A DNA stretch of 63,026 nucleotides, counting the filler, from Licmophora abbreviata (Eukaryota), in NCBI GenBank assembly GCA_900291995.1. It is 17 parts of 17 records of this genome, joined end to end, with 100 filler letters (N's around TTAATTAATTAA, not from the genome) between each part and the next. Parts side by side here need not be neighbours in the genome. Positions count along the whole stretch, not along the records: positions 48,656 to 56,940 come from OLMU01003113.1; 16 more parts are not named here. The stretch is one strand, 5' to 3'. Positions 8,468 through 62,640 of this stretch are shown here, in pieces. The first letter of the stretch is position 1, and each line of letters opens with the position of its first letter. A model generated the notes under the pieces. The model searched no databases. It had not been told where the DNA came from and saw only the letters and a program-made list of their open reading frames with translations. The position numbers and the translations under genes were made by a program.

Positions 8468-11400
8468 ATGACTTCTGTTGCAGAGAATGTGGATATCTGT
8501 GTGACATGTGTATCTGACAAGCCGCCGAGCTATCCGCTGCGGGAAGAGCTTCTCAGTCTGGGAGTCGAGGTAATCTACAATGCTCGAGGAACAGGATCTC
8601 GTGCAATTGAAAACGAAACTGAAAAGGCAGTGACGGAGTTTCGGCGTCAGGAGAAAGAACGAGAAGAACAGAAATTCCGCTTGTTCCCGTTGAGCAAACA
8701 GAAATTGATCGAGAAAGAAATGAAGCGCAAGGGAAAAGAGCAAGAGATCCGGGATCACCCACATAGCCTTTCTTACCTAGATTACCAAAGAAGTCTATAC
8801 CACTTAGACAGCACAGAAACTGATTCGCCAGGTAAGGCTGAGAAAGCCAATTTCACGAAGAAGTCAAGGAAAAAGAAAGACAATCGAAAGGAACTGGGTA
8901 CAATGATGAACGGAAATGGAGTTTCGACACCACAAGCTCTGTCGAGTGAAAGAATAAGGGAGTCTTCAAGTGCATTTTCGGGTGCTGAAGTTCATGCGCT
9001 CGATATCAGACATGATCCTGACTCCCAAGTGAACGCAGCCTACGCTGCCAACACGGCATTAGCCGTGTTCTCCTTCACGGGCGTTCCACTGCCGCCAATT
9101 GCCGAAGAGCGCCTTGGCAGCTTAGAAATGAGTTCAAGCGACGATGATAGTGACCACATCTCATTGTCTTCGGTTACTGCCCCTCTGACGGAGACAACGT
9201 GCTACTCACCAACAGAAGCAGGATCGATCGAGATTTCCCTGATCCCAACACCGACACGATATTGGCATAATGAGGGGAGTGCCTCTATCCAAGATAGTCC
9301 GAGCCCGAAAATGTCAGATGAGTTGAGCGAAGGCTCATCAGTCTTTGATGGAATCGATAACGACCTCGACATGGTTACAGAGGCGTAGAAGTTGGCAGAG
9401 ATGTGCAGTTCCTGGATCAATGCGATACATCGGTGACCGAGATTCCTAACAGCGACCGCAACGCCACTGGATTCAGAGTACTTGATGATCCATCTCACTC
9501 AACAATCCTTCCAAATACGTCTGACTCTACGAAGACCGGTACTACAGTTCCTGGAGCCTCTGCTGGCGGTGTGGCGCGAGGATCGCTTGGTACTGCCGTG
9601 GCGGCATCTGCCGCATTGCCATTGACCGACAAGGAGAAGGCATTGACGTCATTGGAATCAAATGAATCTGCTCCTGATGAGATTGATGACATATTGGACA
9701 AACTTTTCATGAAAGTGGAGAAAGCTGGCGTCCAGGATGATCCTGTTCTCGTCTGCGAGGCAAACTGTCCACCCACCGTCGCAACAAACCTCGAAAACGA
9801 CCTCACTGGCAAGGCGATGACTGACGTACCGAAAAAGGTTATCGATACTATCGTTGAACATGCTTCTGGAGTTTCTAATCGTCGCCGTTCGGTCAAAAGC
9901 TTTGTACATTCCGCAAAGAAATCTTCTATTGTTCCAGATTCCGGAGGTTTGTCCAACGCTACAAAACTGTACAAGCCTGATGTCAACACTGAGTCGGAGG
10001 ACGGCTTCATTAAAGAAAGTGGACTTGTCACCGAACAAGATTCCCCCGCTCTTTCGCTCGCACATGGGAGACAAGTCAATCGAAATGATATGATCCATCC
10101 GTCTTCAACTGAAATCAACCAAGGACCGAACGAAGACTTCTTTGAAAGCATCCGAATTCAGGCACCAGAACAGACAAGAGTTCAGGAGTTCCACAGCGCA
10201 ATGAAGTCTATGAGACCTGACACTTTGAAAATCCTCTCACGATTTGAATCGAACCCAAAGCTTGCGTTGTCTTCTTCAAGCGAAGATGGTAGATTGGCCC
10301 TTCATGTGGCTTGCGATCGAAAATTCCCCGTCCGAGGTGTTGACTTTGACGCAGATCTTGACTTGATCGAAGCTCTACTTAAGGATGTTATCGACCTCCG
10401 CGAGCTCATTGAAGGTATTGTTGAGTCGTACCCCGCAGCGTGCTTATTATCAGACAACCATGGTGACCTCCCAGTTCACATTCTTGCTAGACGCTTGTTG
10501 GAATGGGAGACCGAATGGCACAATCAGCTTCTGCCCATTGACGCTGACGCCGGTACCCGATCGCACAATCTGAGAAAACTCCAGAATGCAATGGCTCAGA
10601 CGGTGAACGTTGTGTTGAGGCCCGTGGCATCTTTGAGGTCACTGTGCCAAAGTCGTGGTAGAGTGGGGCGTCTTCTGCCCCTTCATGTTGCTGCAATCTT
10701 TGCGGCTCCTTTCGATACACTGCGCCTTCTCCTTGAAACATATCCGGTCGCCGCCGGAGTTCCTTGCGATATTCTGGGATTGCACTCATGTACCAGAAAA
10801 AAATGTTTGCCATTGGAACTCTTGGAACGTGCACGCCTGTTCCGTTGCAGGCCACTCCTTTCTCTCCACGACATGCCACACGACGAGGATGCCAGCACAC
10901 ATTGCCCAGCCTCGCTTTCGGCAAAGTTTACGCTTACCGATGATCTGGAGCGTCATTCTGATCTTCTGTTTGCCTTCAACCCTGGCATCTTGCCGTTTCG
11001 AAGAGAACCAACCCGCATTCAGCGACTGGAAGGCCTTATCTGGAATGACGTGAAACGTGTGACGGAGAGCGAAGCCATCGTGGATTTCGCAGTTGCTGTT
11101 CGAATCGCATGGACTTGGATTTGCACTTTTGAAGATGACACAACTCTTGACGACAACTATTCTTCAAGCGTGTCCCATTTAGTGAACTCTATGACTCTGA
11201 AGGCGGTGCAAACGCTGTCGTCGATGAAAAGTCTTGAAGGAGATCTAATTTTGCAAGTTGCATTGCCACAATGCCACCAGATTATCAAGAAAAGACTAGA
11301 TGGTCGGGAATCTGAGTTGTTAATCACTGGCGATTCCGGATTCAACAGTGTCCCACTGAAACAGTTCCAGTCTATTGCAGAGCCCCCTCAAAGGCCCCGA

Positions 11401-12480
11401 AACCTCCGGCAGTTTGCAATCGACTCATCGTTGTCGTTTGGAGAAACCGAAAGTCGGGATGAGTCGTCAGTCATGAGAACGTCAGGAGACACTGCTATAC
11501 GACCTCCGAAACAAGACTGCACACTCTCCAACAAGAAGTCTAGTCTGAGTTCTGAAGCAGATTTCGAACCGATTCAGTCCTCAAGAGTAGTTTTAGATCA
11601 TAATCCTTGGGAGTACTATCGAGTCAGCATGGACAAGGCCGTACCGCTCAAGGCATCACTGGAAGATCAAGAGTCGCGGCTGAAACAAGTGCGAACTAAA
11701 TTGTACATGATAAACTTGGAAGAAGAGAGCTCTCTACTATCCGAAAAGGATACCATTGATCGGATCGAGACTCACATAGCAGCATACGATGCAGCAGCTA
11801 TCCGAGAGGACATTTCGCTTGGAGAGGAAGAAGAAACTGGTATGAACAGGGACAGCGATGCTGAGCGAGACATTTTCCGGCGAATGTGCAAACTTGAGGA
11901 GCGCCTGCTTCGCCGGGAGATCGATCTCGAACAACTGAAGTTGGCAACACATGCATTCGAGCTCAAGGTCGTCGCGACGGCTGTGGATGAGCCTGATGAT
12001 GAGAATGAGAATGCATCGTGCAGTGCACAAGCCGACTCCTCGAGATCTCGAGTCGAGATTGTGGTAGGCGACGAAGATGATGCCAGTGAGATGCTGAGCA
12101 CATTATCAAAAAAGTTTGACCTGGACGACGACGAAACGTCGTCATTTGACAAGTCCAGTGGTATTTATATTTTCCGGAAACAACATGCGGTGAAAGAGAT
12201 GGACGTCGGCAAGGCTCTTGGAAAGCAGATGGGCCGCATGCCAAGCTGGATTCTCAGTTCACGTGAACAGTATTTGGATAGCGAGGAAGACGAAGTGACC
12301 AAAGTACTAGCAAAGGACACGATGCGACGTGCAAGTGGGATCATTGACTCTCGAAAACATCATCGAAGTGCCGAGGAGGACGAAGTCAAGGCACGAGCCA
12401 AGCAAATGTCCCGAGAGGCTGTAGATTTCTGGAAGCATATGCAGCAGAATACGCGGCCTCCGTTACCGATGATGACATAG
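8468..12480 (+). CDS. Large (~1340 aa) protein with ankyrin-like repeats and C-terminal coiled coil; split by an apparent 1-bp frameshift near 9382
   Basis: ORF 8468-9388 and a frame open from 9361 to 12480 overlap. Adding one G at ACAGAGGCGTA gives ...MVTEGVEVGRDVQFLDQ. Ankyrin-like GRLALHVAC, GDLPVHIL and LLPLHVAA motifs. Confidence 0.6.
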
Positions 12481-48069: not shown

Positions 48070-48832
48070 ATGACGATGCTTACTGGATGTAACGGAAGTA
48101 CAGTTCTGGCGTTTGCGGGGCATACAGCGATCCAAAGGGGGTCATTGACTGTACTAGACATTCCTTCTGCGCGTGTAGCGACACGGCCGGCGTACACGGC
48201 CTGCTCTTCTTGTTTTGCGAGACGACGACCCGACATGGAACCCGATCAGAACGAAGAACTACCGCTCGAAGCGGCAATCGATCGAATATCTGGAATTATT
48301 TCCTCATCGACGCCGTTGATACCGCAAGTAGCTCTTGGATACCCGTTGGTGTTGTTACTGTTGGGTCTCGTCCTGCCATTTTTCACGTGGATACTGTCAT
48401 GTGGTTTGTTTGTTGGATTTTTCTATCTCGGAAGCGTGATTATTGACGAAGACGATAATGAACCAAGGGATATCTTGGCACTCCTTTCCTTGGCAGGAGG
48501 CCTGGCGTCGGCGGGGCTGGTTTCTCCGGCTGGATTGCTCTCGGCAACACGAGCTNNNNNNNNNNNNNNNNNNNNNNNNNNNNNNNNNNNNNNNNNNNNT
48601 TAATTAATTAANNNNNNNNNNNNNNNNNNNNNNNNNNNNNNNNNNNNNNNNNNNNTTTTCCATGATTGCGCTGGCGGCTGCCTCGCTTGTACCATTTGAA
48701 GGCGACTCAACGTTAGCCGAAAGGGATAGCCGGATCGAGGAACCTACAACAACATCACTAGATGACGAGCTATTGCAACGGTGGGACAAGAAGTTTGTGA
48801 GCGACGAATCCGAGAAGGACGAGGAGTTGTAG
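48070..48832 (+). CDS. Hypothetical multi-pass membrane protein (spans gap)
   Basis: Three to four hydrophobic segments before the gap. An open frame after the gap ends ..ELLQRWDKKF..EEL* at 48832. Confidence 0.5.
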
Positions 48833-49644
48833 CACTCTTTGGAGACGGTGCAACTATACTCGTAATTACTGTTAGTATATACGCTTTCATCGATGAGCCG
48901 AAGTGCCTACCTTTCGTACCCTGGTACCCAACATCAAACGAAGCCCGGCTTTGCGGTCGCCAAGCGTCTGGCGTGCGTCACGCCGGCTCTCACTGGCATC
49001 AAGTCACGTGTAGAGTCCTCACTAACATTAATGTTATCTACGTGTACGAATAAATGTTATAACTTTCCCGCCAAGACTGTCCAAAAAATTTACGAATCCC
49101 GTGTTCTCAACACGACTGCCAAATTTAAAAAGTGTCATCGGAACGTGTTGTGTAGTTTGTTTATGTCCACAAGCCTATATGTCATATCATCCGTTAATCG
49201 CGTGCCTGCGAGTGAGCATATAGAGGCATGTATAGGTGAAATTTACCCAAATATCTTTTTTCGAAGTTCAAAGTGCGCACCCTCATGTTTCGTTCCTGAT
49301 ACCGGTAGTATCTCACACGTGAGTTTATGGACCCACGTTCCAAATCAGGACTGAAGAGAAGAAGTCGGGGTCGAGAAAGTTCCATTTTGCTGGGCAAGCA
49401 AGATATCAAGACGACGTGAACGAGTCCAAAGTGTGAGGCACCAAGTATACTTTCGCGGGAGTCAATTGCTTCGTCGGAATCGAACTGGAGGAGTCGCACC
49501 TCACGGAGACTGTGGACACCACGGAACACGGAGCGACGTTTCGTGATACTCAAGACAGAGGAGAGTAGACTGCTTTTTGCTCCGTTGGTATCACAGAAGT
49601 GTTGACTTTTCCACTTTGCTTCGATCTGGTCCTAAGCCTTCGCC

Positions 49645-52286
49645 ATGGATTCACCTCCGCAGGACCCCGACGATGATCTGCGGTCACCGGTGAGCGAAGC
49701 ATCGCCGGCCACCGGGTCGCTGCGCAAGAAGCGGAACAAGACGCCCTCGACGCCACAGACGACAGCAACGGAGCTCATGACTCCCATGAATGATACGCCC
49801 ATGAGCACTCCGTTCGGGTCCGTCTCATCGAATCCTTGTACAGCTCCAGTCACGGCCCCGTCGCCGCGCGACGAGGTGGCCGACATTGCCTTGCAGGACG
49901 AGGAATATTTCTTTGATGGGTCCCCCTCTTCGCATTGGGACGACGAGTGGAACAGCCGTGCGCTCTTTCGTGATGAAGAAGAACCTGGAAAGTCGTCGAA
50001 GAGGAGGAGTCTTGCTCGAACGGACAACTTGCCGCCGCCAATTCCGCCTCCGGACGAGTTTTCTTCGAGGGACATTTCGGGGTCGTCTCTGAACGACGGC
50101 ACGTCGTCACGCCGCAAAGTGCGTGCCACACGACGAACCAAGAGCGTAACTGTGGGCGAGCACTTTTCCTCTTCATCTTCCCTGGGAATGTCTGAGCGAA
50201 GGCGCTCTTCATCGCATTCGTCTCGTCGAAGTTTCTCCAACTTTTCAATGTTGGATGGTGATGAGGTTGTCAAAGTAGACACCACCCCATTGACTACCTC
50301 CGACTCGTCACCCGACTCGAGCCCGAGTCCCACTCGTGACATTCCCAAGCATCGGCGGCGACTGTCCAGTCCGATTCCTGCGGACATGGAAATGTTACCG
50401 CTCCGTGCCAGGCTCGCATACAAGCTCGGACGCATGCGAACAAACAAATTGGTACTGGTTCTATGTCTAGTAGGCGTCGCGTCTCTAGGCATTACGGTCT
50501 CGACAAACCTGTCCATATCCATTCCGACATTCCAGGATGACCTGGTTATGGACGCGGAACAACTCGAGCGTGCCATTGCCAAGTACGAGGAGACACACGA
50601 TGTGCGAGTGCGACGACCGGCGCGTCTGCAGCCCGAAGGTGGGCTGCGTGGTCAGCTCCTTCTCAAGCACAAGGGTCTGCCCCAAAAAGCGTCGTCAGTC
50701 GGTGACAAGGCCATTAAGAAACCCATCGAGACAGACAAGAAGGACAAACGAGAAGAGGCTGGCAAGAAAATCATAGTCTCCAAGGAAAAGTACGAAAAGC
50801 GCCACAGCAAGACGACAGCCGAGACGTCTGCTCACCAGTCAGATGCCAAGGCCTCCTCAGCCACACCTAGTTGGAACCACGTTAGCTCAGCGCCCAAGGA
50901 TTCATCCTTTGCCGCGGGCTCAAAACGACGAATCGCTCGGCCGCCTGAGCAAGACATGAGAGTGTCGAGCTCATTCGAAGCGATCGACGAGAACATGTTT
51001 GTCGCAGAGGAGAAGGGCAGTAGTGGATCACATGCGCCGCGGCTTGTTTCGCTCCACGATCCGATAACGGACAAAACGGTAGCACAACCCCGGAGCATCA
51101 CACAGTACCCAGCCGACTTTACCGACAACACCCAGTTGTATTCGATTCTAGATTCGGAAGACGAACGCCTGGGTCGCATGGAAATTCGTGATCCGTACTC
51201 GGACGAGCACTGCGTCCCGATGCAGGAGTGGCAAACTACATTCCACCCGTCGTGCAACGGTATGCACGAGGTTGCCCTAGAACATATGGGTGGCGACAGT
51301 GAAAACGATTTCAACTTGTTTGGCACCAAAGGCTATTGGCGGAATGCCTGGAGAATCGATATGCTCGGCGGTCATCATCACATTGAGGATAGAGAGACTG
51401 CGGTGCTAAAAACGCTTAAGTGAGTCCTTGCATTTCGCTTTCTCCATCGCGATTCTCTGTTGCATCGCTCTGTGCCCTAACATAATCACACTCCCTTTCT
51501 CGTTACTCGTATTTCAGATTTGAGCACAACTTCGAGGATGCTCACTTCGAGCATGATCGCGTGGACGCTGTTGCCATGGAGCGTCTCACGGCCTCCCCGC
51601 ATGTGATTAATGTCTTTGGGTTCTGCGGGCACTCCGTGGTTACTGAGCATGCCGATGGATCCCGCGTCGGTGAATTGGCAGACAAGTCGAAAAAGACGTG
51701 GCTGGCGCGACTCAAGATAGCCCGAGACATTGCCAACGGGCTAGCCGACGTCCATGGGATTGATGGAGATGGAAACGCCACGTTTGTGCATTTGGATATC
51801 AACCCAGCCAACGTCGTGAGTGTCGGTGGAACGCTCAAGCTGAACGATTTCAACATTGGAATCATTCGACGATGGAACACAACGTCGAATACACCCTGCG
51901 GATTTCCGGCGCAGTATCCGAACCCACAATGGCGCTCGCCGGAAGAAGCCCGCAACGAGCAGAGTCTAACGGAAATGGTGGATGTCTTTTCGATGGGTCA
52001 TATTTTCTTCCGACTTATCTGCGGACACGAACCATGGAACAAGCTGGAGCCAGGTGGCAAGCCAAGCAAGGAGGAAATTGACCGAAAGGTGCAACAAGGG
52101 ATGCTTCCATTCATCCCACCAGATATTTTAAACACAAAAGATGAAGAGGTCGCAGCGATTCGCTCGGCGATGCTTCGATGCTACGATAAGGATCCTTTGA
52201 AGCGACCCAGCGCCCGCGAGATTGCGAATGTGTTGCAAGAAGCGCTCGACAAACTGACAGACGGGGGGACAAAGAAGTCATCATAG
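49645..52286 (+). CDS. Type II membrane protein kinase (PKDCC/VLK-like secretory-pathway kinase)
   Basis: Single TM (KLVLVLCLVGVASLGITV). Kinase motifs FGTKGYWRNAW, VLKTLK, HLDINPAN, KLNDFN, WRSPEE, DVFSMG and KRPSA. Intron 51420-51517. Confidence 0.82.
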
Positions 52287-52365
52287 AAGGAACAGCCGAT
52301 GATTACTGCAAAGAGTTAACCTATTGTGCCTTACTATTACTGGTCTCGTATCACTTGTCTTCATT

Positions 52366-53726
52366 TCAAAACGGAACCTTGTAACCCAGGACCAAGAGAA
52401 GTAAGCCCGCCAGTACACCTGCCACGCTGTTGGCGACCGAAGGCGAGACTTCCAGATTCCCAATGACCATTTCGATAGGGGCCAGGAGAAACGCATTGGC
52501 CAGCACCTGGCAGGTTCTAGATGTGCGGTCGTCTATGGCAATCTCTTCTCTCACTGCCATGACAACGAGCTTGGGTCCGATAAATTGAGTGCATGTCGAA
52601 ACAGGGTAACAGACTGCCGAGAGCGACATCATGAGCATTGCTGCATTCGACAAGTAGACAGCTAGAACCAATGCCGTATGAGAACGAGTCCATAGCAGCC
52701 CATCACTCTGCCACACCATACTAATGAGATTTGCCGTCTCCACTAGGAATAGGGACATGGCCAGTATCATCCGAGCGCCAAATCGCATTGAGAGGTGTCC
52801 AATATCCTGCCCCAACCGATGGAACGACTCCGACCAACGCTCGAGCATCGGGTGGTACTCTGGATGAACAGAAAGGTAGTTTGTTCGCTGGAAGATATCC
52901 AGTTGAGTGTCTAGCTCCGCATCGATTTCGTTTAGCCGCACCTGTATTCCTCTCAACGCCAACGCGGTCAGTAAAAAGTGGGCATATATGGTGCATTTGT
53001 GAATCAATATCGAAACAGCGGCGTACGGGATATAGATCGCCTTGCGTTCGATTGTCTCCCCTCTTTTGAAAATCCACAGGACTATCTCCACCACGACAAC
53101 GCCCAACGCAGTTACAAGACTAAGGAGTATGAAAAATCGCGCCCCCCTGTCCCGCATGAGTTTTTCCGTGTTGATGCGGCATTCAGTGAGAGTCGCATTC
53201 TTGGAAAGGTAACCCAATGACGTATGCATCGGCGCAGCAAACCAGAAACTCATTAGCAATGGAAGAAGAAACGCATCGAGACGAATCAAGCTCCGGATCG
53301 TGGCGTCCTTGTCCACAACTAGCGAGGGAAAGACGTAGTATCCGGCCTCGACCGCCAAGACCAAACCAAGAACAAGGAGATTTGTCACGTAGCGGCAGCA
53401 TCGGTTTCGGGAGCAAATCACAAAGTTCGGGGTAGCGAGCAAGTCGTCAGAGTAAGAACCCGTATGAATCGCGTGATCATAGACAGGAGGGGTGTTTCTG
53501 TCGTCACTGGAGCCACGAGGCCGTCGCTCTCTTGGACATCATGAAGCGTGTCGTCGTGTGATGGGTGTTCTCGATCGAGCAAAATCAGGCTCTTCTCACT
53601 TCCTGAAGCCTCTACAGCTGCTCTTTCTATCCACAAGAATAGACGAATGAGTCTTTTGTGAAAACGGTGGTCTGGGGGCAACAATCGTTCGTCTGCGGCA
53701 GCGGAGGAGGCGTTCGACACCATCAT
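52366..53726 (-). CDS. Seven-TM protein with gustatory-receptor-like (7TMIC/GRL/DUF3537) topology; 1-bp frameshift at ~53430
   Basis: Seven hydrophobic helices, a long TM4-TM5 loop and a split terminal helix (APIEMVIGNLEVSPSVANSVAGVLAGLLLLVLGY). No signal peptide. Adding one C to the C run joins the N-terminal ORF. Confidence 0.6.
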
Positions 53727-53987
53727 GGTGTGATGACACGAATTGCAATCTGTGACATCAGAAATACGCCGCGCGCATCTCACTTCAAAAAGTCTTACAT
53801 ACTCCGCGCACGCGTACCGATACCGGGTACCGCGGTTTAGAAGATGAGTTCACGTGTCCGCATCGACTGCCGACAATACCTTCGACCTCTGCTGCTCTCT
53901 CAAATAAGTTCGAAAGTACGCACACTTGACGTTCATGATAAGCAGCGTGTTACTACAATATCACATCCAGTTACTCATGCGTGTCTC

Positions 53988-55231
53988 TTAAACAGAAGTG
54001 GCCCCCTCTTGATTTATGTCAGAGGTGCCATTCGAATCGAGTGCACCATCCTCCTCATCGTCCTCGTCCTTGTTACAATTCCTAGGGTCGCACAATACGT
54101 GGGCCTTGCAATCAGGACAACTCCCCGCTCGCTCGGTCAACCATGGATGTATACAGTCGTAATGATAGGCATGACGACACAGTGGTAAGACCCGTATTCG
54201 TTCGCCCTCCTCAAAGTCTTGTATGCAAATGGAGCACATTGTCGAGGTAGTAGCCATCGGAGTTATCCCCACCTGACATTCCTCTTCACTGTTGCCGCTC
54301 CCGTCACCCTTGCCCCCTCTTCCATTTGCTCTTGCCAGGCACCATCACCATCGTCACTACGATACACCAAAACAGGCAAGTCCATGACCTGCGCGTTGGA
54401 CAAGAGCTTCTTGTCGGGTCGATTTCTACTAGGAAAGCTTCCTCCGACACCACCAGAAGACCCCTCCTCCCCAGCACTGCCATGTATATTTCGCCGACAA
54501 AGAAAGAGAGTACAGGGCGCGACCAGTACGCATAGAAAGATCGCAAGAAAGATCAAGTATAATACGACATCGTGGGTGCCGACGGGATTTTGAGGATCCG
54601 GAGGTATAATGCTGAGCGGTAGGGACCATTTTTCATTGCCTAGACTACCCACATAGGGACTCTCTATCACCCCGCTCGACAAGAAGGGAGTCAGCATGAC
54701 ACCTCGAATGCTTCGTCCTGCAAGGAAACTGACAAACATGAGTCCCATGTTCTTGGAGGTCGCCATAGTAGAGGGGTCAGGGATCTCATCGGGATTGAAG
54801 GAATCGTTGGATTGAAAGACGAGGTATCGTACCAGCGACGACAGTTCGAGGCGAGACGCATGCTGAATCTGGGTCGACATGCTGCAGTTTACCGACAGAG
54901 GAACTAGCAGTGCAATGGGTTCCAGATTGTATAGACCTTGCACTGGCTCTGCTGGATCTGTGGTGGTGACAGGATCCAGACACAAGTCGAGATTGTATTG
55001 CGGGGGAAGCATCAAGTTGGCACTGCGCACGAATTCCGTCACGCGTTTGTCGCTGCTCGAAACAGCAGCTCGGTATCGCAGGACTCGAGCCAGTCTCAGT
55101 TGTACCATCGTAGTCCCACGGTTAGGCGAGTCAGCAGAGGCCAGGACTAGTACACTCGTAAAGACTGCCAGTATTGCCAGTACTTGTAAAGGCAGCGACT
55201 GCGGAGTTATTGTGTTGCGTATCCTCATCAT
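53988..55231 (-). CDS. Signal peptide-(PA-like)-TM-RING-H2 E3 ubiquitin ligase (RNF13/RMR-like); 1-bp frameshift at ~54315
   Basis: Signal peptide; TM VVLYLIFLAIFLCVLVAPCTLFL; RING-H2 CSICIQDFEEGERIRVLPLCRHAYHYDCIHPWL..SCPDCK. Adding one G in the G run joins the frames. Confidence 0.82.
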
Positions 55232-55633
55232 GGTGCTGATGGTGATTCCAGGCCATATATACCTGATGGTACAGCTGCACTTTTGGCTTGTACAGTGACT
55301 GTGTGACCGTTTTCTGCGCGTCTGTGAGCAGAATTCAGTCGTTTCAAAAAACAAAAAACCTCGTCGTCGCGTGGAAACTCCGGGTCTTTTCTTGAGTTGT
55401 GCGAGCTCTATGATACACCAACGTCTACTAACTTGCGACCTCGTAGTGTCACAACGCGCTCCTTCAGGCGCGCAGTCACAGTCGTGCATCCGCGATCTCG
55501 AGATGATCCGCGATCCGCGATCCGGGAGAAGAAAGTTGATCGTGTGAAGGCGTCTCAGAGACTCGGCATGTTCTTTCGTTTGCGATTCTACAGCCCCTGC
55601 TAGCTGGCGAACGTATCACTCAGCTCTTCCAGA

Positions 55634-56500
55634 ATGGCGGAGGAGGATCAGGTTCCGATCGATGTCGTGGTGGCCGTCAACAAGGAACGAGAAGCTCGTA
55701 TATGACTATTCACGGCTGCTGTACAACACGGTTTGGTTTTCTTGTTGTGGTTCTGGTGTTACTTCTGGGGATTATTGAAGGGTTGGCTTCGGTTATTGTT
55801 ATTTTTGTCATACGAGCTACCAGTGCAAGGATTGACCAAGCGGGCGACCCGACATCTGCACCATCTCCCGTCATGAGAGACGATGCTACTCCCGACCTGA
55901 CGCCAGCTCCCGCGCAACATTACTAGCTACTGTCACTCCCGACCCGAGCCCACCAATGTCGGGGAGCCAACCACAAGTCGCAAAGAAGCTATCGTTTCCT
56001 TCATAAATTCCATTACCCAAACCGGACGACAAATCGTCTATCCTCTTTCGGCAGTCGTCGATGACGACCCCACACTAGAAGACAAGGCCCTGTCGTGTTT
56101 CCATGGTTCTTGACAGAATCTCTCGACTCTTGCAGTTGTTCAACACCAGTTTGGTCAGGATTTCATATTGTTCGCCTTGCATCGGCTCCACCCAACCTGC
56201 ACCAGCTGGCGATATTCTATTTGACTCTTTACGGCAATAGTACTCTTCTTCGACCATCGCTTGGTCGATTTACAGAAATATTCGATATGTACAATTACCT
56301 TTCCATGGTGCAAACTGCCACGGGTTGGCTAAACTGGCGTATTGGCGAGTTGACGGATCTTCTTCAACATGGTCATATTCTATAGCTGCAACATCCCCTT
56401 ATTTCTCGAGACAGAAAAGATTGACGTTGAACTTCCGTGTCTTTTTCGTCCAACGACAAGAGCTGTTGGACTTAGCAACACGTGTTGATCGACATGCAAC
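55634..56500 (+). pseudogene. Disrupted TM + Pro/Thr linker + LRR-like gene remnant
   Basis: Fragments in shifting frames: TM (FLVVVLVLLLGII), PTSAPSP linker, EAIVSFINSIT..TLEDKALS and LRR-like LTLYGN..PSLGRFTE. Multiple stops and frameshifts; the 3' end is approximate. Confidence 0.45.
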
Positions 56501-57040
56501 GGCGCTGCAATAGCGTTGACGATCAAAAAGAACTTTTCCAAATTTCAAACTTCGTAGCAACTTTTCGGCTCAGAGCGCCGTGTGCCGGCATGCCTGCTAC
56601 CGGTACCGGAAATGATACGACGTGTGTGTTAGGCAACGCCGTCCCTTATTTGCACCGGTAAAGCATGTATTATGGATCAGCCAGAGCACAGTTCGTCGCA
56701 AGACAGTTGTCAAGAGAGGAAGTGGACTCGGACAGGCTCGAAGCCAGCCCTAATAAGAAGCGCACAATGGATGACCAGACAATGTTTCTACTTTCAAGCT
56801 CGACGACTCTAGAGACCCCGCAGCTTAGTAGGAACTAGGCCAAGCACAAAGACTCAAACGGATATTTCTAATTTTCTACTTCAAGGGTGACGTTGGACGC
56901 TACGAATTTTCGAATGAGCAGACCGTAGACACGAGGAGCCNNNNNNNNNNNNNNNNNNNNNNNNNNNNNNNNNNNNNNNNNNNNTTAATTAATTAANNNN
57001 NNNNNNNNNNNNNNNNNNNNNNNNNNNNNNNNNNNNNNNN

Positions 57041-58224
57041 GCATAGTTGTTGTAGTACTCACCCAGGGGCGTCAACGCAGATGTACCCCTCGGTCCAATC
57101 TCCTTGAAGGTCCACATCGAACTATGAGCGCTATCAAGGACATCGCAAGTATCGATGGCGCAGAAACAATTGTTGCTGCTCATTGACAGAGAAAGCGGGG
57201 AAGCGCACTCGGGTGTCACATCCGCGGCTGATATACATTCATGCAAGTCCTGAATATGTCCCTCGTCAGTGCCAAAGTGGTTGAGCCACTTTCTTTTATG
57301 GCAGATCTGAGCTTTGGATACGTCCCAGACCAGCTCATTGAGGCTGTTGTGCTCCCAATCGGGATTGTATGCACTGTACCAAGAGTAGCGAAAAACTGCT
57401 GGATTGTTGTGGAGTATCGGCATTATTTGTTCCATGAGCGCTGACTGCCTTGCTTCTGTGCAGCCCGTTTCGCCTTGGATGCCAAACCCGCAGGCAAACT
57501 CGGTGAGCCACAGCTTCTTTCCGTACTTTGTATGCCATTGATTGATCCTTCTGGTCGCCTTAATTGCTTGGTAGCCTACGCAGGCCCATTCGGCCACGTC
57601 AGGGCCACAGGATCCAACTGCGGCGTCCCACGGCTGATAGTATAGATGAGCGCAGGTGTAATCAAAGGCGCAAGAATCTGATCCATACATCATGGTACAG
57701 TTCCCGAGCCACTCGTCATACCAGGCTAGTCCAATTCTCTTGCCTGTTGTGCATGGAGCTACCAGTTCAAGACCGTAGTCACCCGCGATCTTCTCGACTT
57801 GAGGCCACAGCTGCGCTGCATCTGCAGGAAGTATGTTGGACTGATCTGGGCGGTCAGGCTCGTTGAAGGTCAGCAAATAAGTTGCCTCCCTTAAGTTCAT
57901 GTCGGTCTCGCTATCGAGCGGTAGAGTAGGAACAGATCCCCAAAACATGGGGACGAATTCCATCCCGGCATCCCTTATCTTGCTCACCGATTGCTCGGGA
58001 CGATCACACAAAGAACGTTTTTTGCCAGTGAAGCCAGTTGTCGAGGACCACGAATACCACCATTGCGAGGATGTGTGTGGAGTAAGCGCATCGCAAGACT
58101 GTGCGGAATAGAGAGGCACGCCCTTTTGAAAGTTGCGCTCTGCGGTGGTGCCGCTGTTACTAACGATTACGGCAAGAAGGACAGCCGTGCTCAGCTTTCG
58201 TAGACTTGAGAACCAAGCAGTCAT
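57041..58224 (-). CDS. GH128 beta-1,3-glucanase-like protein with Cys-rich insertion (copy 2, stop lost in gap)
   Basis: WWYSW, EFVPMFWG, LLTFNEPD, HLY, KLWLTEF (nucleophile), VFRYSWY and a terminal LTPLGEYY. Confidence 0.9.
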
Positions 58225-58752
58225 CGTTAAAAATGGGGTCTGCCTGCCAAGATCAAGGCTTGACAAAATCTATGTCTTGTCACGCTTGAGGCAAACTATA
58301 AAAAGTGATCATGAGTTGTGAAAGCTTCACCCAATTCTTCTTTTCAGCTTCAACCAAGGCGGCTTTTTCAGCTTCACCCAATGAATTTTTGGCGGGTGTA
58401 ATTATAGAAAGTGATCCTTGGTTCTTGTGAAGTTCACCCAATTGCTAGGTGGCAGTGGCATTTATAAATGAACCATAAGTTCTTTTGGTGATGCCAAGGG
58501 CTTTTTTCTCTTTCGCGCCATTTTGTCGTGCTTCGTCCGCTGGATCTTATGGCGCGTGCGGCGGTCCGGATTTCTTGATTAGATTTTTCGCTCACGTTTT
58601 GTGTATACATATTGGAATGTTGCATAATTATTGTAATGTCAGAGTAGCAGACNNNNNNNNNNNNNNNNNNNNNNNNNNNNNNNNNNNNNNNNNNNNTTAA
58701 TTAATTAANNNNNNNNNNNNNNNNNNNNNNNNNNNNNNNNNNNNNNNNNNNN

Positions 58753-60035
58753 CCTTTTCGCTGATGCGAATCATGCCAACACGAACACGCGTCTGCCTGA
58801 CACCCAAGTCCGTTGCGGACACAGACGCAGTCATCGCTCCAGCAACATGGCTCCTTTTCGACGGCATCATGAAGCAATTGTTCCAATTCAGCACGCGATG
58901 TCGTGGATGACTGGTTCTTGTCCGGCAGAAGACCACGTTTCCGTAATTCTTCCTTCACTTTACGTTCGTTCATTCGCCGATGCTGTGCCTTCCTGCCTCC
59001 ATCCTTGGGCGGGATATACACGTCCAACTTGCGACACGAGCATCCAGTACTACCCTCCATACTGCGGTGGACGCGGACCTGTTCCAGTTCGTTGCGTGCA
59101 TGCAGCACGTCAGTCGATGTAAAGGTCTTGTTGTAATACTGATCGCTGTTGGACCGTAGCCGCCGAGTGGTCGTTCGAGAGATGGGTTTGGGGGAGTCCT
59201 TGGGAGAAAATTGTTCGCTTTTAGATCTTTGTCGGCGTTGTTGTTTCAAGCTGTTGGATCGAGGGGGTGACCTCGGTGATAGCTCTGATGAAGGCGAGTT
59301 GACGGGATGATCGGCCTCGTTGCTTTCTGACACGAGCAGGTGCATTCGCTGGTCCTCTGACAATGGCCGAAACAATGGATTCTTGGTACTGCCTGTAATC
59401 TCGCATGGTANCTTTTTGTAATCAAACTGACGAGTCTCCAACACTCCCGTCGGTGGCACCATTGGTGGTCGAAGGTGATGAATCTCAGCCCCATCCTTAT
59501 TATTTTGCTTTTCCCGACGTTCCGAAGAACTGACTATTTGAAGCCATCGTTGTCGCAATTCGACTTGTCGTCGTTCTTCAAACCCCTCAATACCGCCATG
59601 AATTTGATACTCGTCACTCACGGTACAACCCATGCCCAACGGCCAACCCCCGTCGACCGGTACCACGTCACAACCCAAACATCGCTCGTACTCGCGTACC
59701 GAAACCCCACCGAATCGAACTGTCTTGGCGACTGCCGCTTGATGCGTATCGTTGTCGTTGGAGCTATCACTTTTCTTTTTGTTCTTGGTTCGCTTCTTTT
59801 TGCGCTTCGTTTTCTTCTTCGTAAGAGTCGGCGAAGATGATACTGATGCTTTGATGTTTGCAACGGCATTCGAAGAAGCAGTGTTGCCATTATTTGTTTT
59901 GTCGGGTGACCTTTTCATTCTCGATGAATCCTTTTCTTCTTCCTCCTCCTCTTCGGTATCCGTTTCATCCTCGTCATCCTCATTCATCACCAGCGTGTGG
60001 TAGGCTAATGATTGGAATAATGGAGGCGGTGGCAT
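58753..60035 (-). CDS. CSRNP (cysteine/serine-rich nuclear protein)-like protein, 3' end at gap
   Basis: Basic NLS tract; KTVRFGGVSVREYERCLG..VPVDGGWPLGM; ELEQVR..GCSCR; CCWSDDCVCVRNGLGCQADACSC. These match the CSRNP_N layout. Confidence 0.7.
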
Positions 60036-61653: not shown

Positions 61654-62640
61654 ATGAAAATGCTGAGGGATCGTTGTGATTTCTTACTTGTTGCGGCCAT
61701 ATCGATGCTGATTGTTGCGAATCTTTCTCTTGTCTTTTGGGCTCCAACGCTTTTAGAAAGTCCTTTCGGTACTACTATCACAAGCCTCACTGCATTCACG
61801 AATAGAACCAGCTCCAAGGGAATAATAGATAAATCAGACGAATTGGAGAAGTCGCCGCCATGGATCAGCGCACTGCAGATACCAGCCTCGACCCTCGCTT
61901 CCAGAAAAGATATGAGCCTCATCTCGAATACAGACGATATACAGGTTTCGATGGTCTGTATTGTTTCCATGATGCGCTCGTCATCTTCTTTTTTCTCTAA
62001 TCGGGTCATTGCGCATATGCCCTGTCACACTTCGCTGGACGAAATATTCCACTTAGATTCTCAAAGCTATCTAGAAGCCTGGGGGGAAGATGGAGTCTTC
62101 TTGAGCCTGCGACCTGAACCTTCGGAGAACTCTGCATCACAGCTAGCGCAAGTTGTCCTCCGCGCTGCCAGACGAAAGTGTCGGGCAAATTTGGAACGAT
62201 ATCCGCGTTCCCAACGCTTGTGTGCCAATCACTGCTGGGTCAACTGGAAACAATTCGACACACATTTTAACGACACGACGAAGATACATCTACATGGCCA
62301 AATTTGGAAACTCCTACAGCCGCATGATCTGAGTTTAGTCGTATTGGAGCGTCCTGTTCAAGATCGCTGGCCGTCCTACTGGTATGGAAAACAGACAGGA
62401 GACTGGAATCGCAGAGGCGACGAACAACACAAGACACAGCTGGCCGCCATGGCGATTCCAGAAATGGAAGCTGATTTTCGAAACAGTCATTTGCAGTGGT
62501 ATTCTTATGTGCGAAGCTTCCTCAGCTCCAACGACGATTTCCACTGGAAAGAGTATACGTTCGATCAGGTCACCAAGACTGATGTAGAGCAGACACAACA
62601 GACGCTCCGTGAATTCTTTTCTTCATCACGCTACCAGTAG
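61654..62640 (+). CDS. Type II membrane Stf0-like sulfotransferase
   Basis: N-terminal TM; MMRSSSSF (5'-PSB-like); VVLERPVQDRWPSYWYGKQTGDW resembles the Stf0 LxR..S...QTGxW motif. Confidence 0.6.
   Translation: MKMLRDRCDFLLVAAISMLIVANLSLVFWAPTLLESPFGTTITSLTAFTNRTSSKGIIDKSDELEKSPPWISALQIPASTLASRKDMSLISNTDDIQVSMVCIVSMMRSSSSFFSNRVIAHMPCHTSLDEIFHLDSQSYLEAWGEDGVFLSLRPEPSENSASQLAQVVLRAARRKCRANLERYPRSQRLCANHCWVNWKQFDTHFNDTTKIHLHGQIWKLLQPHDLSLVVLERPVQDRWPSYWYGKQTGDWNRRGDEQHKTQLAAMAIPEMEADFRNSHLQWYSYVRSFLSSNDDFHWKEYTFDQVTKTDVEQTQQTLREFFSSSRYQ

Follow-up and report, generated by a model that had tools for sequence, protein, structure and literature searches.

Locus and gene structure

The stretch of DNA analysed here (the window) is 63,026 nucleotides (nt) long and consists of 17 joined parts of the Licmophora abbreviata assembly GCA_900291995.1, of which positions 48,656-56,940 derive from OLMU01003113.1. 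On its minus strand, this part carries a gene at 53726..52366 that is real and is split in the assembly by a one-base frame break. Its product is, with a probability that we put at about 0.9, a divergent member of the 7TMIC (seven-transmembrane ion channel) superfamily, by fold and by homology.

Two overlapping pieces of the gene are open in the assembly, in two different frames of the minus strand. The N piece is an open reading frame (ORF) of 102 amino acids (aa) at 53726..53421, with its ATG at 53726 and a stop at 53418, and the C piece is a 390-codon open frame at 53538..52369, with a stop at 52366 and an earliest ATG only at 53253. A word-based search of 5.8 billion proteins returned three relatives, the best of which, P0001 (452 aa), showed 54% identity over 96% of the query. 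P0001 runs colinearly along both pieces: the N piece can be aligned as far as TETPLL, and alignment of the C piece starts at the residues that precede LLATPNF. Like the gene product, P0001 begins with MM. Because of this colinearity, the two pieces are taken as one gene with a frame break between ~53490 and 53440. The C piece forms a single uninterrupted frame without intron. No paralogue was found in the window: when 43 family proteins were used as tblastn queries, all 46 matches fell within the gene itself.

Contigs from four public sequencing runs were compared with the gene; these were short and left much of it uncovered. The only contig across the break, from run X3 (151 nt, depth 4, 53350-53499), carries an extra T behind 53473 on the plus strand, equivalent to an extra A on the coding strand, and differs from the assembly at one further base. 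Inserting the X3 base, which lies outside any homopolymer, produces one frame of 453 codons from 53726 to 52366. Any +1 insertion within 53418-53540 likewise opens the frame, so that the sole indel of the contig sits where one is required. An earlier sequence-only reading of this DNA had arrived at a protein of ~450 aa by correcting one C in a homopolymer. The length agrees with the 453-aa frame and with the 452 aa of P0001, and one base is indeed needed, at another place than that reading had assumed: the C run at 53490-53493 is covered by contigs of runs X3 and X1, in which its length is unchanged, and a correction there was rejected. An intron in place of the break was also rejected, since all eight GT..AG joins that open the frame have non-consensus donors; they would excise 113-230 nt, including the conserved first transmembrane helix (TM1), and the genuine neighbouring intron reads GTGAGT...TTTCAG.

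Contigs of at least 99% identity were present in marine metagenome runs, and five codons differed among the environmental contigs, three synonymously and two non-synonymously. The break stems either from an error in the assembly or from a lesion that is specific to the strain and very recent, the environmental variant being frame-intact on the thin evidence of a contig of depth 4. Neither piece has a further stop or indel, both are open and conserved from end to end, the C piece retains the identity to P0001 given above along 96% of its length, and the sole independent contig across the site is intact, all of which argues against a pseudogene, that is, a real deletion at 53473/53474 that would leave only the truncated 102-aa product. 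This second state of the locus, in keeping with an assembly that is out of frame, with a missing base outside the long homopolymers where assembly errors are commonest, and with an X3 contig that may stem from another strain given its one additional difference, is judged unlikely without being negligible; the lesion, if real, would be very recent.

Predicted architecture of the gene product

The structures of the C piece and of full-length P0001 were predicted with AlphaFold2 (AF2) without templates from a 31-row alignment; residue numbers count along the 390-aa C piece unless P0001 is named. The model of the C piece reached a mean predicted local distance difference test (pLDDT) of 86.6 and a predicted template-modelling score (pTM) of 0.84, and that of P0001 a pLDDT of 84.4 and a pTM of 0.84, with an identical helix plan. 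The coordinates of the resulting features are given in Table 1.

Table 1. Features of the 7TMIC gene in the window, with positions counted along the whole stretch.
Feature	Position	Strand	Remarks
Whole gene	52366..53726	-	ATG at 53726, stop 52368..52366; 453 codons after adding one base
N-terminal amphipathic helix (HRFHKRLIRLFLWIERAAVEA)	53607..53669	-	Hydrophobic moment ~0.7; conserved in family alignment
Frame break	53473..53474	-	One base short relative to environmental variant, which has an extra T behind 53473 (+ strand)
TM1, residues 46-74	53317..53403	-	AF2 helix
TM2, residues 79-101	53236..53304	-	AF2 helix
TM3, residues 131-158	53065..53148	-	AF2 helix
TM4, 53-residue helix 166-218	52885..53043	-	AF2; second half juts beyond the bundle (anchor domain)
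TM5, 50-residue helix 229-278	52705..52854	-	AF2; first half within the anchor domain
TM6, 50-residue helix 285-334	52537..52686	-	AF2; conserved C-x-x-x-I-G-P-K-L motif
TM7a, residues 337-352	52483..52530	-	AF2; short anchor-domain helix
Beta-hairpin linker TM7a/TM7b, 13 residues (APIEMVIGNLEVS)	52444..52482	-	Strands 358-362; modelled in both proteins
TM7b, residues 366-383 (18 residues)	52390..52443	-	AF2; presumed pore-lining helix
C-terminal tail LGYKVPF (7 residues) and stop	52366..52389	-	Directly after TM7b

TM4, TM5 and TM6 measure 53, 50 and 50 residues in the C piece and 53, 51 and 51 in P0001, compared with 23-29 residues for TM1-TM3. The loop between TM2 and TM3 comprises ~29 residues (102-130) and includes a short helix, and the hairpin linker carries a P-x-x-h-x-x-G motif, where h is a hydrophobic residue. 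A hydropathy scan recorded eight hydrophobic stretches, the surplus one being TM7a together with the hairpin. At the N-terminus of P0001, a helix at residues 14-37 was modelled with confidence (block pLDDT 78-95) and is followed by a low-confidence, disordered linker of ~45 residues; the amphipathic helix of the gene product is the likely equivalent of the re-entrant helix termed TM0 or S0. Since no stretch in the first 79 residues reached 1.2 on the Kyte-Doolittle scale (19-residue window), a signal-peptide-like segment is lacking.

The helix layout drawn by the sequence-only reading is recovered by the models. Its seven transmembrane helices correspond to TM1-TM6 and the split TM7 in both of them, its short hydrophobic segment before TM1 to the amphipathic helix (moment ~0.7), conserved and confidently modelled in P0001, and its long helical TM4-TM5 loop to the stretch formed by TM4 (166-218) and TM5 (229-278). 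The terminal P-x-x-hydrophobic-G hairpin and last helix appear as the 13-residue hairpin and as helix 366-383, which ends seven residues from the C-terminus, and the hydropathy windows of the first 79 residues, all below 1.2, agree with the absence of a signal peptide.

Structural matches and superfamily traits

When the 390-aa model was compared with the Protein Data Bank (PDB) using Foldseek, 17 matches had an E-value (E) of at most 0.001, and each of the 20 rows listed up to rank 24 was an insect gustatory or odorant receptor (Gr or Or). The first 19 listed rows (ranks 1-23) had a probability of 1.00 and template-modelling (TM) scores of 0.47-0.64 over 355-387 columns, and rank 24, a shorter chain that is also an insect receptor, had a probability of 0.99 and TM scores of 0.36/0.43. 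The next unrelated row was a 14-3-3 protein with a TM score of 0.13. The model of full-length P0001 likewise gave only insect receptors among its top 20, in alignments that begin at model residues 14-24. Identity to the insect receptors in the structural alignments was 8-16%. The insect receptor-like 7TMIC fold proposed from the sequence is therefore what both models returned; the helix count did not depart from seven, and neither a transporter nor a G protein-coupled receptor (GPCR) was the best match.

The 7TMIC superfamily is recognised by seven transmembrane helices, an N-terminus inside the cell and a C-terminus outside it (N-in/C-out), intracellular loops longer than the outer ones, long TM4-TM6 and a split TM7 (PMC9998090; bioRxiv 10.1101/2023.08.30.555482). 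Five such traits were counted for the gene product, with orientation treated apart. TM1-TM6 and the split TM7 make up seven transmembrane helices in both models, and TM4-TM6 (53/50/50 residues) project below the bundle. TM7 is divided into helix 337-352, strands 358-362 and helix 366-383, as in P0001. With sides assigned by the fold match, the loops on the anchor side add up to 164 residues and those facing the other way to 38; the anchor-side loops were the longer ones in 17 of 17 rows. The modelled shape is that of Class-A 7TMICs (Gr/Or/DUF3537-like) and not that of the PHTF-like Class-B, a placement made because the TM2-TM3 loop is short.

A family of marine microbial eukaryotes

A profile built from four sequences and searched exhaustively over 1.84 billion representatives retrieved 41 proteins at E<=0.001, of which 32 also passed E<=1e-10 and 17 passed E<=1e-30; further word-based protein searches yielded 4 and 9 matches. 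A further member, P0044, is the complete ORF of a transcript from the marine microbial eukaryote transcriptome project (MMETSP), and the family is therefore transcribed in a cultured marine microbial eukaryote. Ten family clusters that were looked up came from JGI, ENA and Logan assemblies only, with none from NCBI or UniRef. Because of this provenance, the family may be missing from UniProt-based structure screens and may not have been covered when Himmel et al. (2023) screened the AlphaFold DB.

The maximum-likelihood tree, inferred from those 25 of the 31 rows that are 290 aa or longer, resolved several deep clades and grouped the gene product with P0001 and P0002 (100/100) on a long stem. 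Conservation climbs towards the C-terminus, from 0.24 in TM1 through 0.45 in TM5 and 0.55 in TM7b to 0.61 in the hairpin, the most conserved segment of the family; the N-terminal half is variable. The hairpin linker is exactly 13 residues long in all 25 rows that span it. For 7TMICs at large, the same pattern is described, with conservation concentrated in the anchor and the pore (bioRxiv 10.1101/2023.08.30.555482). The protein is thus one of a small but diversified family, as yet without a name, from marine microbial eukaryotes; the family is what is new here, the kind of protein being known, with 7TMICs already found in microbes.

Residual similarity at the sequence level

Seven of the 31 family members matched PF08395 (7tm_7) at E<=1, the best being P0006 (E 2.3e-5, 24.3 bits), and the further member P0045 reached E 5.9e-4 and 19.7 bits; no other Pfam family was matched by more than two of the 31. 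The four PF08395 matches for which coordinates were available pair corresponding parts of protein and profile, for example residues 189-401 of P0001 with positions 118-319 of 370. PF12056 (DUF3537) gave no match at E<=1 in the 31 members. Among the protein-language-model neighbours in the Atlas, scoring 0.94-0.97, there are clusters with 7tm_7, DUF3537 and Trehalose_recp, the DUF3537 cluster (rank 20, score 0.95) providing the only link to PF12056. The residual similarity of the family to animal 7tm_7 is closer than that reported for plant DUF3537.

The best PDB sequence match of the family profile was NhaA (E 0.079), confined to the hairpin region, which was set aside as chance or local likeness. 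In this alignment, which is not significant (E ~0.08), residues 22-79 of Escherichia coli NhaA pair with the final turns of TM6 and with TM7a, the hairpin and TM7b (52390-52530), and the two have in common a local pattern, P-[IV]-x-[LV]-x-V-G-x-[FL]-E.

Neighbouring genes in the window

Proteins of the adaptin, Gpi16, DEAD-box SPB4-type helicase, Hsp70, RING and kinase types are encoded elsewhere in the window, with short canonical introns. The Atlas cluster closest to the adaptin (score 0.99) has Bacillariophyta as its most frequent phylum, with a phylum assigned to 10 of its 105 members; the recognition value of 2196 falls below the 2300 mark of the tool. On the plus strand next to the 7TMIC gene lie a 592-aa ORF without Pfam match (49645..51423), directly after which a GTGAGT...TTTCAG intron begins, and a kinase-domain ORF (51576..52286) that covers profile positions 56-259 only. 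The two are probably parts of one large, possibly receptor-like, kinase gene. Kinase gene and 7TMIC gene are convergent, with 80 bp between their stops.

On the other side, two minus-strand ORFs are separated by 5 nt and stand in different frames: one of 408 aa that has hydrophobic segments (55489..54263), and an 89-aa RING-H2 ORF (54257..53988), whose frame is open upstream of its own ATG. Together they probably form one gene for a membrane-anchored RING E3 ligase with a frame break or tiny intron; if a frame break, it would be a second possible one-base problem in the assembly. Farther away, a 411-aa ORF at 56989-58224 (minus strand) contains a Glyco_hydro_cc catalytic core (E 4.5e-42), and long ORFs without Pfam family occur at 58701-60035, 61654-62640 and 9709-12480.

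Weighing membership and function

Membership of the gene product in the 7TMIC superfamily has to be set against several observations that weigh on the other side. The gene product itself matched no 7TMIC family of Pfam at E<=10, none of its relatives reached the 7tm_7 gathering score of 26.6 bits, and the family profile, run against all PDB sequences, found no Gr or Or in 13 matches at E<=10. The Atlas recognition value of 2267 is just below the 2300 mark, which makes the neighbours weak evidence by the rule of that tool. The TM7b motif (T/S)Yhhhhh(Q/K/E)(F/L/M) is absent from the family, so that two marks of animal Gr and gustatory receptor-like (GRL) proteins, the Pfam 7tm_7 threshold and the TM7 motif, are missing. 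Lysine and arginine (K+R) counts, which are crude, favour N-in (293 on the anchor side, compared with 71 opposite it, and higher in 17 of 17 rows spanning TM1-TM7b), yet the densities are equal, and the short outer loops of the gene product are rich in K/R (8 in 38 residues); the putative orientation is taken from superposition on the insect receptors. In addition, the assembly as given reads the gene out of frame, and no non-animal 7TMIC had a tested function according to PMC9998090, which allows for a quite different activity.

The absence of the motif had been noted by the sequence-only reading, which saw TYxxxxxQF replaced by GLLLLVLGY, and it holds in a structural register that is approximate, being taken from VIA alignment end points (model residue 386 against BmGr9 residue 444). 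In this register, position 1 is G in 15 family rows, A in 8, S in 3 and T in 1, position 2 is L in 25, position 8 is G in 26, and position 9 is L in 15, Y in 7 and M in 4; five hydrophobic residues lie between positions 2 and 8, and only position 9 among the key positions fits the motif. The motif is considered diagnostic rather than definitive, and is unrecognisable in plant members (Benton et al., 2020; PMC7746228).

Models and searches show the architecture of the subunit; what follows on channel and chemosensory function is read from the fold. By analogy with the solved insect receptors, four subunits would assemble through an anchor domain made of TM7a and the projecting parts of TM4-TM6, and the four TM7b helices would line a central cation pore. 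This pore would open into lateral conduits below the hairpins, by which ions would leave. The poorly conserved outer halves of TM1-TM6 would form a ligand pocket, the occupancy of which would shift TM7b and open a hydrophobic, Leu/Val-rich gate at its end. That the protein both has the 7TMIC fold and works by a channel-type mechanism seems reasonably probable. For a multimeric channel as such, analogy tips the balance slightly in favour, and a sensor for an external chemical is a tentative suggestion.

The 7TMIC fold could instead serve something other than a chemosensory ligand-gated channel, which is a possibility of some substance though not the one we prefer: the protein might be a channel opened by another stimulus, such as light, temperature or an internal metabolite, might reside in the membrane of an organelle, or might act as something other than a channel. 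The animal members include the photoreceptor LITE-1, and non-animal 7TMICs are described as functionally uncharted by the superfamily authors, who allow for a quite different activity (PMC9998090); a non-channel activity has also been left open for the PHTF and GrlHz proteins. The gating motif TY...QF is absent. The whole channel architecture has nevertheless been kept, from the anchor helices and TM7a to the 13-residue hairpin and TM7b, conservation is strongest where ions presumably pass, at the hairpin and TM7b, and the several deep clades with variable N-terminal halves resemble those of receptor families. Least probable by far is that the resemblance to the insect receptors reflects convergence, or an artefact of modelling, in a helical membrane protein unrelated to them (a transporter, for example, or a GPCR-like receptor): the lack of a sequence match at a curated threshold would fit, yet two separate models (the 390-aa piece and P0001) agree, rare traits are shared (three helices of ~50 residues, the division of TM7 and the matching length of the hairpin), and the sub-threshold matches recur for a single Pfam family, with the four that have coordinates covering corresponding parts of protein and profile.

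With the gene product taken as a divergent 7TMIC, a more far-reaching and speculative proposal, which we hold improbable as it stands, is that diatoms and their relatives carry their own diversified Class-A 7TMIC channels, which would serve as ionotropic chemoreceptors and detect pheromones, nutrients (silicate, for example) or other waterborne cues. Motile diatoms steer to pheromones and dissolved silicate; we know of no receptor for either cue. In such chemoreceptors, the gate would be made up of the Leu-rich TM7b together with the invariant 13-residue hairpin, and would dispense with the TY...QF motif. If the proposal were true, algae would share the receptor logic of insect taste, and the missing receptors of diatom chemotaxis would be supplied. 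The family offers concrete, clonable candidates for algal chemical sensors, with a fold whose channel mechanism is well understood and for which established assays exist (recordings in oocytes or human embryonic kidney (HEK) cells).

Comparison with known systems

Thousands of microbial 7TMICs were reported by Himmel, Moi and Benton (2023), and members of the superfamily have been found across many unicellular eukaryotes and in bacteria and archaea (bioRxiv 10.1101/2023.08.30.555482). A PHTF of the oomycete Plasmopara halstedii served as a query in that study (Himmel et al., 2023; bioRxiv 10.1101/2023.08.30.555482), which shows that a stramenopile 7TMIC had been recognised before. The main texts of PMC7746228 and bioRxiv 10.1101/2023.08.30.555482 make no mention of diatoms or stramenopiles. 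A full-text literature search for diatom with 7TMIC or with DUF3537 returned nothing, and one for diatom with gustatory receptor showed no diatom receptor among the matches listed, going by titles and the opening lines of abstracts. With the present family, the Class-A side of the superfamily gains a photosynthetic stramenopile lineage, which bears on the question of a 7TMIC origin in the last eukaryotic common ancestor.

Among the microbial proteins, the Class-A GRLs of Thecamonas, Vitrella, chytrids and Protostelium (PMC7746228) and the Euk7TMICs (bioRxiv 10.1101/2023.08.30.555482) likewise combine a Gr/Or-like fold with little sequence identity, a short intracellular loop 1 (IL1) and a degenerate TM7 motif. 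The Class-B PHTF-like 7TMICs have the same core fold and differ in a long intracellular loop 1 between TM2 and TM3, as against ~29 residues here. Plant DUF3537 proteins (PF12056) are similar in having the 7TMIC fold in a photosynthetic lineage and an unrecognisable TM7 motif (PMC7746228), whereas their intracellular loops are longer, notably IL3 (PMC7746228), and those of the diatom protein are near insect lengths.

The insect Grs (BmGr9, Gr43a, Gr64a) and Ors (Orco, MhOR5, AaegOR10, AgamOR28) are tetrameric ligand-gated cation channels. Unlike them, the diatom protein is only 8-16% identical, scores below the Pfam 7tm_7 threshold, lacks the TYhhhhhQF motif and has an N-terminal extension of ~110 residues that includes a disordered linker; its gene is without intron, and its host is a unicellular alga. 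The intron-based Gr/GRL feature, absent here because the C piece is a single 390-codon frame, is, according to Benton et al. (2020; PMC7746228), uninformative in intron-poor protists. In common with the insect receptors, the diatom protein has seven helices, with TM4-TM6 of ~50 residues and TM7a, a beta-hairpin and TM7b near the C-terminus, an N-terminal helix that aligns with the first residues of the receptors, and conservation in the anchor and pore region. A beta-hairpin loop joins S7a and S7b in insect Grs (PMC12635824), and in BmGr9 the helices S4, S5 and S6 are 52, 53 and 45 residues long, followed by an S7a of 15 residues, a gap of 14 and an S7b of 21 (PMC11100771). The diatom gene product, with 53, 50, 50 and 16 residues, a 13-residue linker and 18 residues, is near these lengths (PMC11100771), and its TM7a-TM7b linker of 13 residues compares with 14 in BmGr9 and 13 in MhOr5 (PMC11100771).

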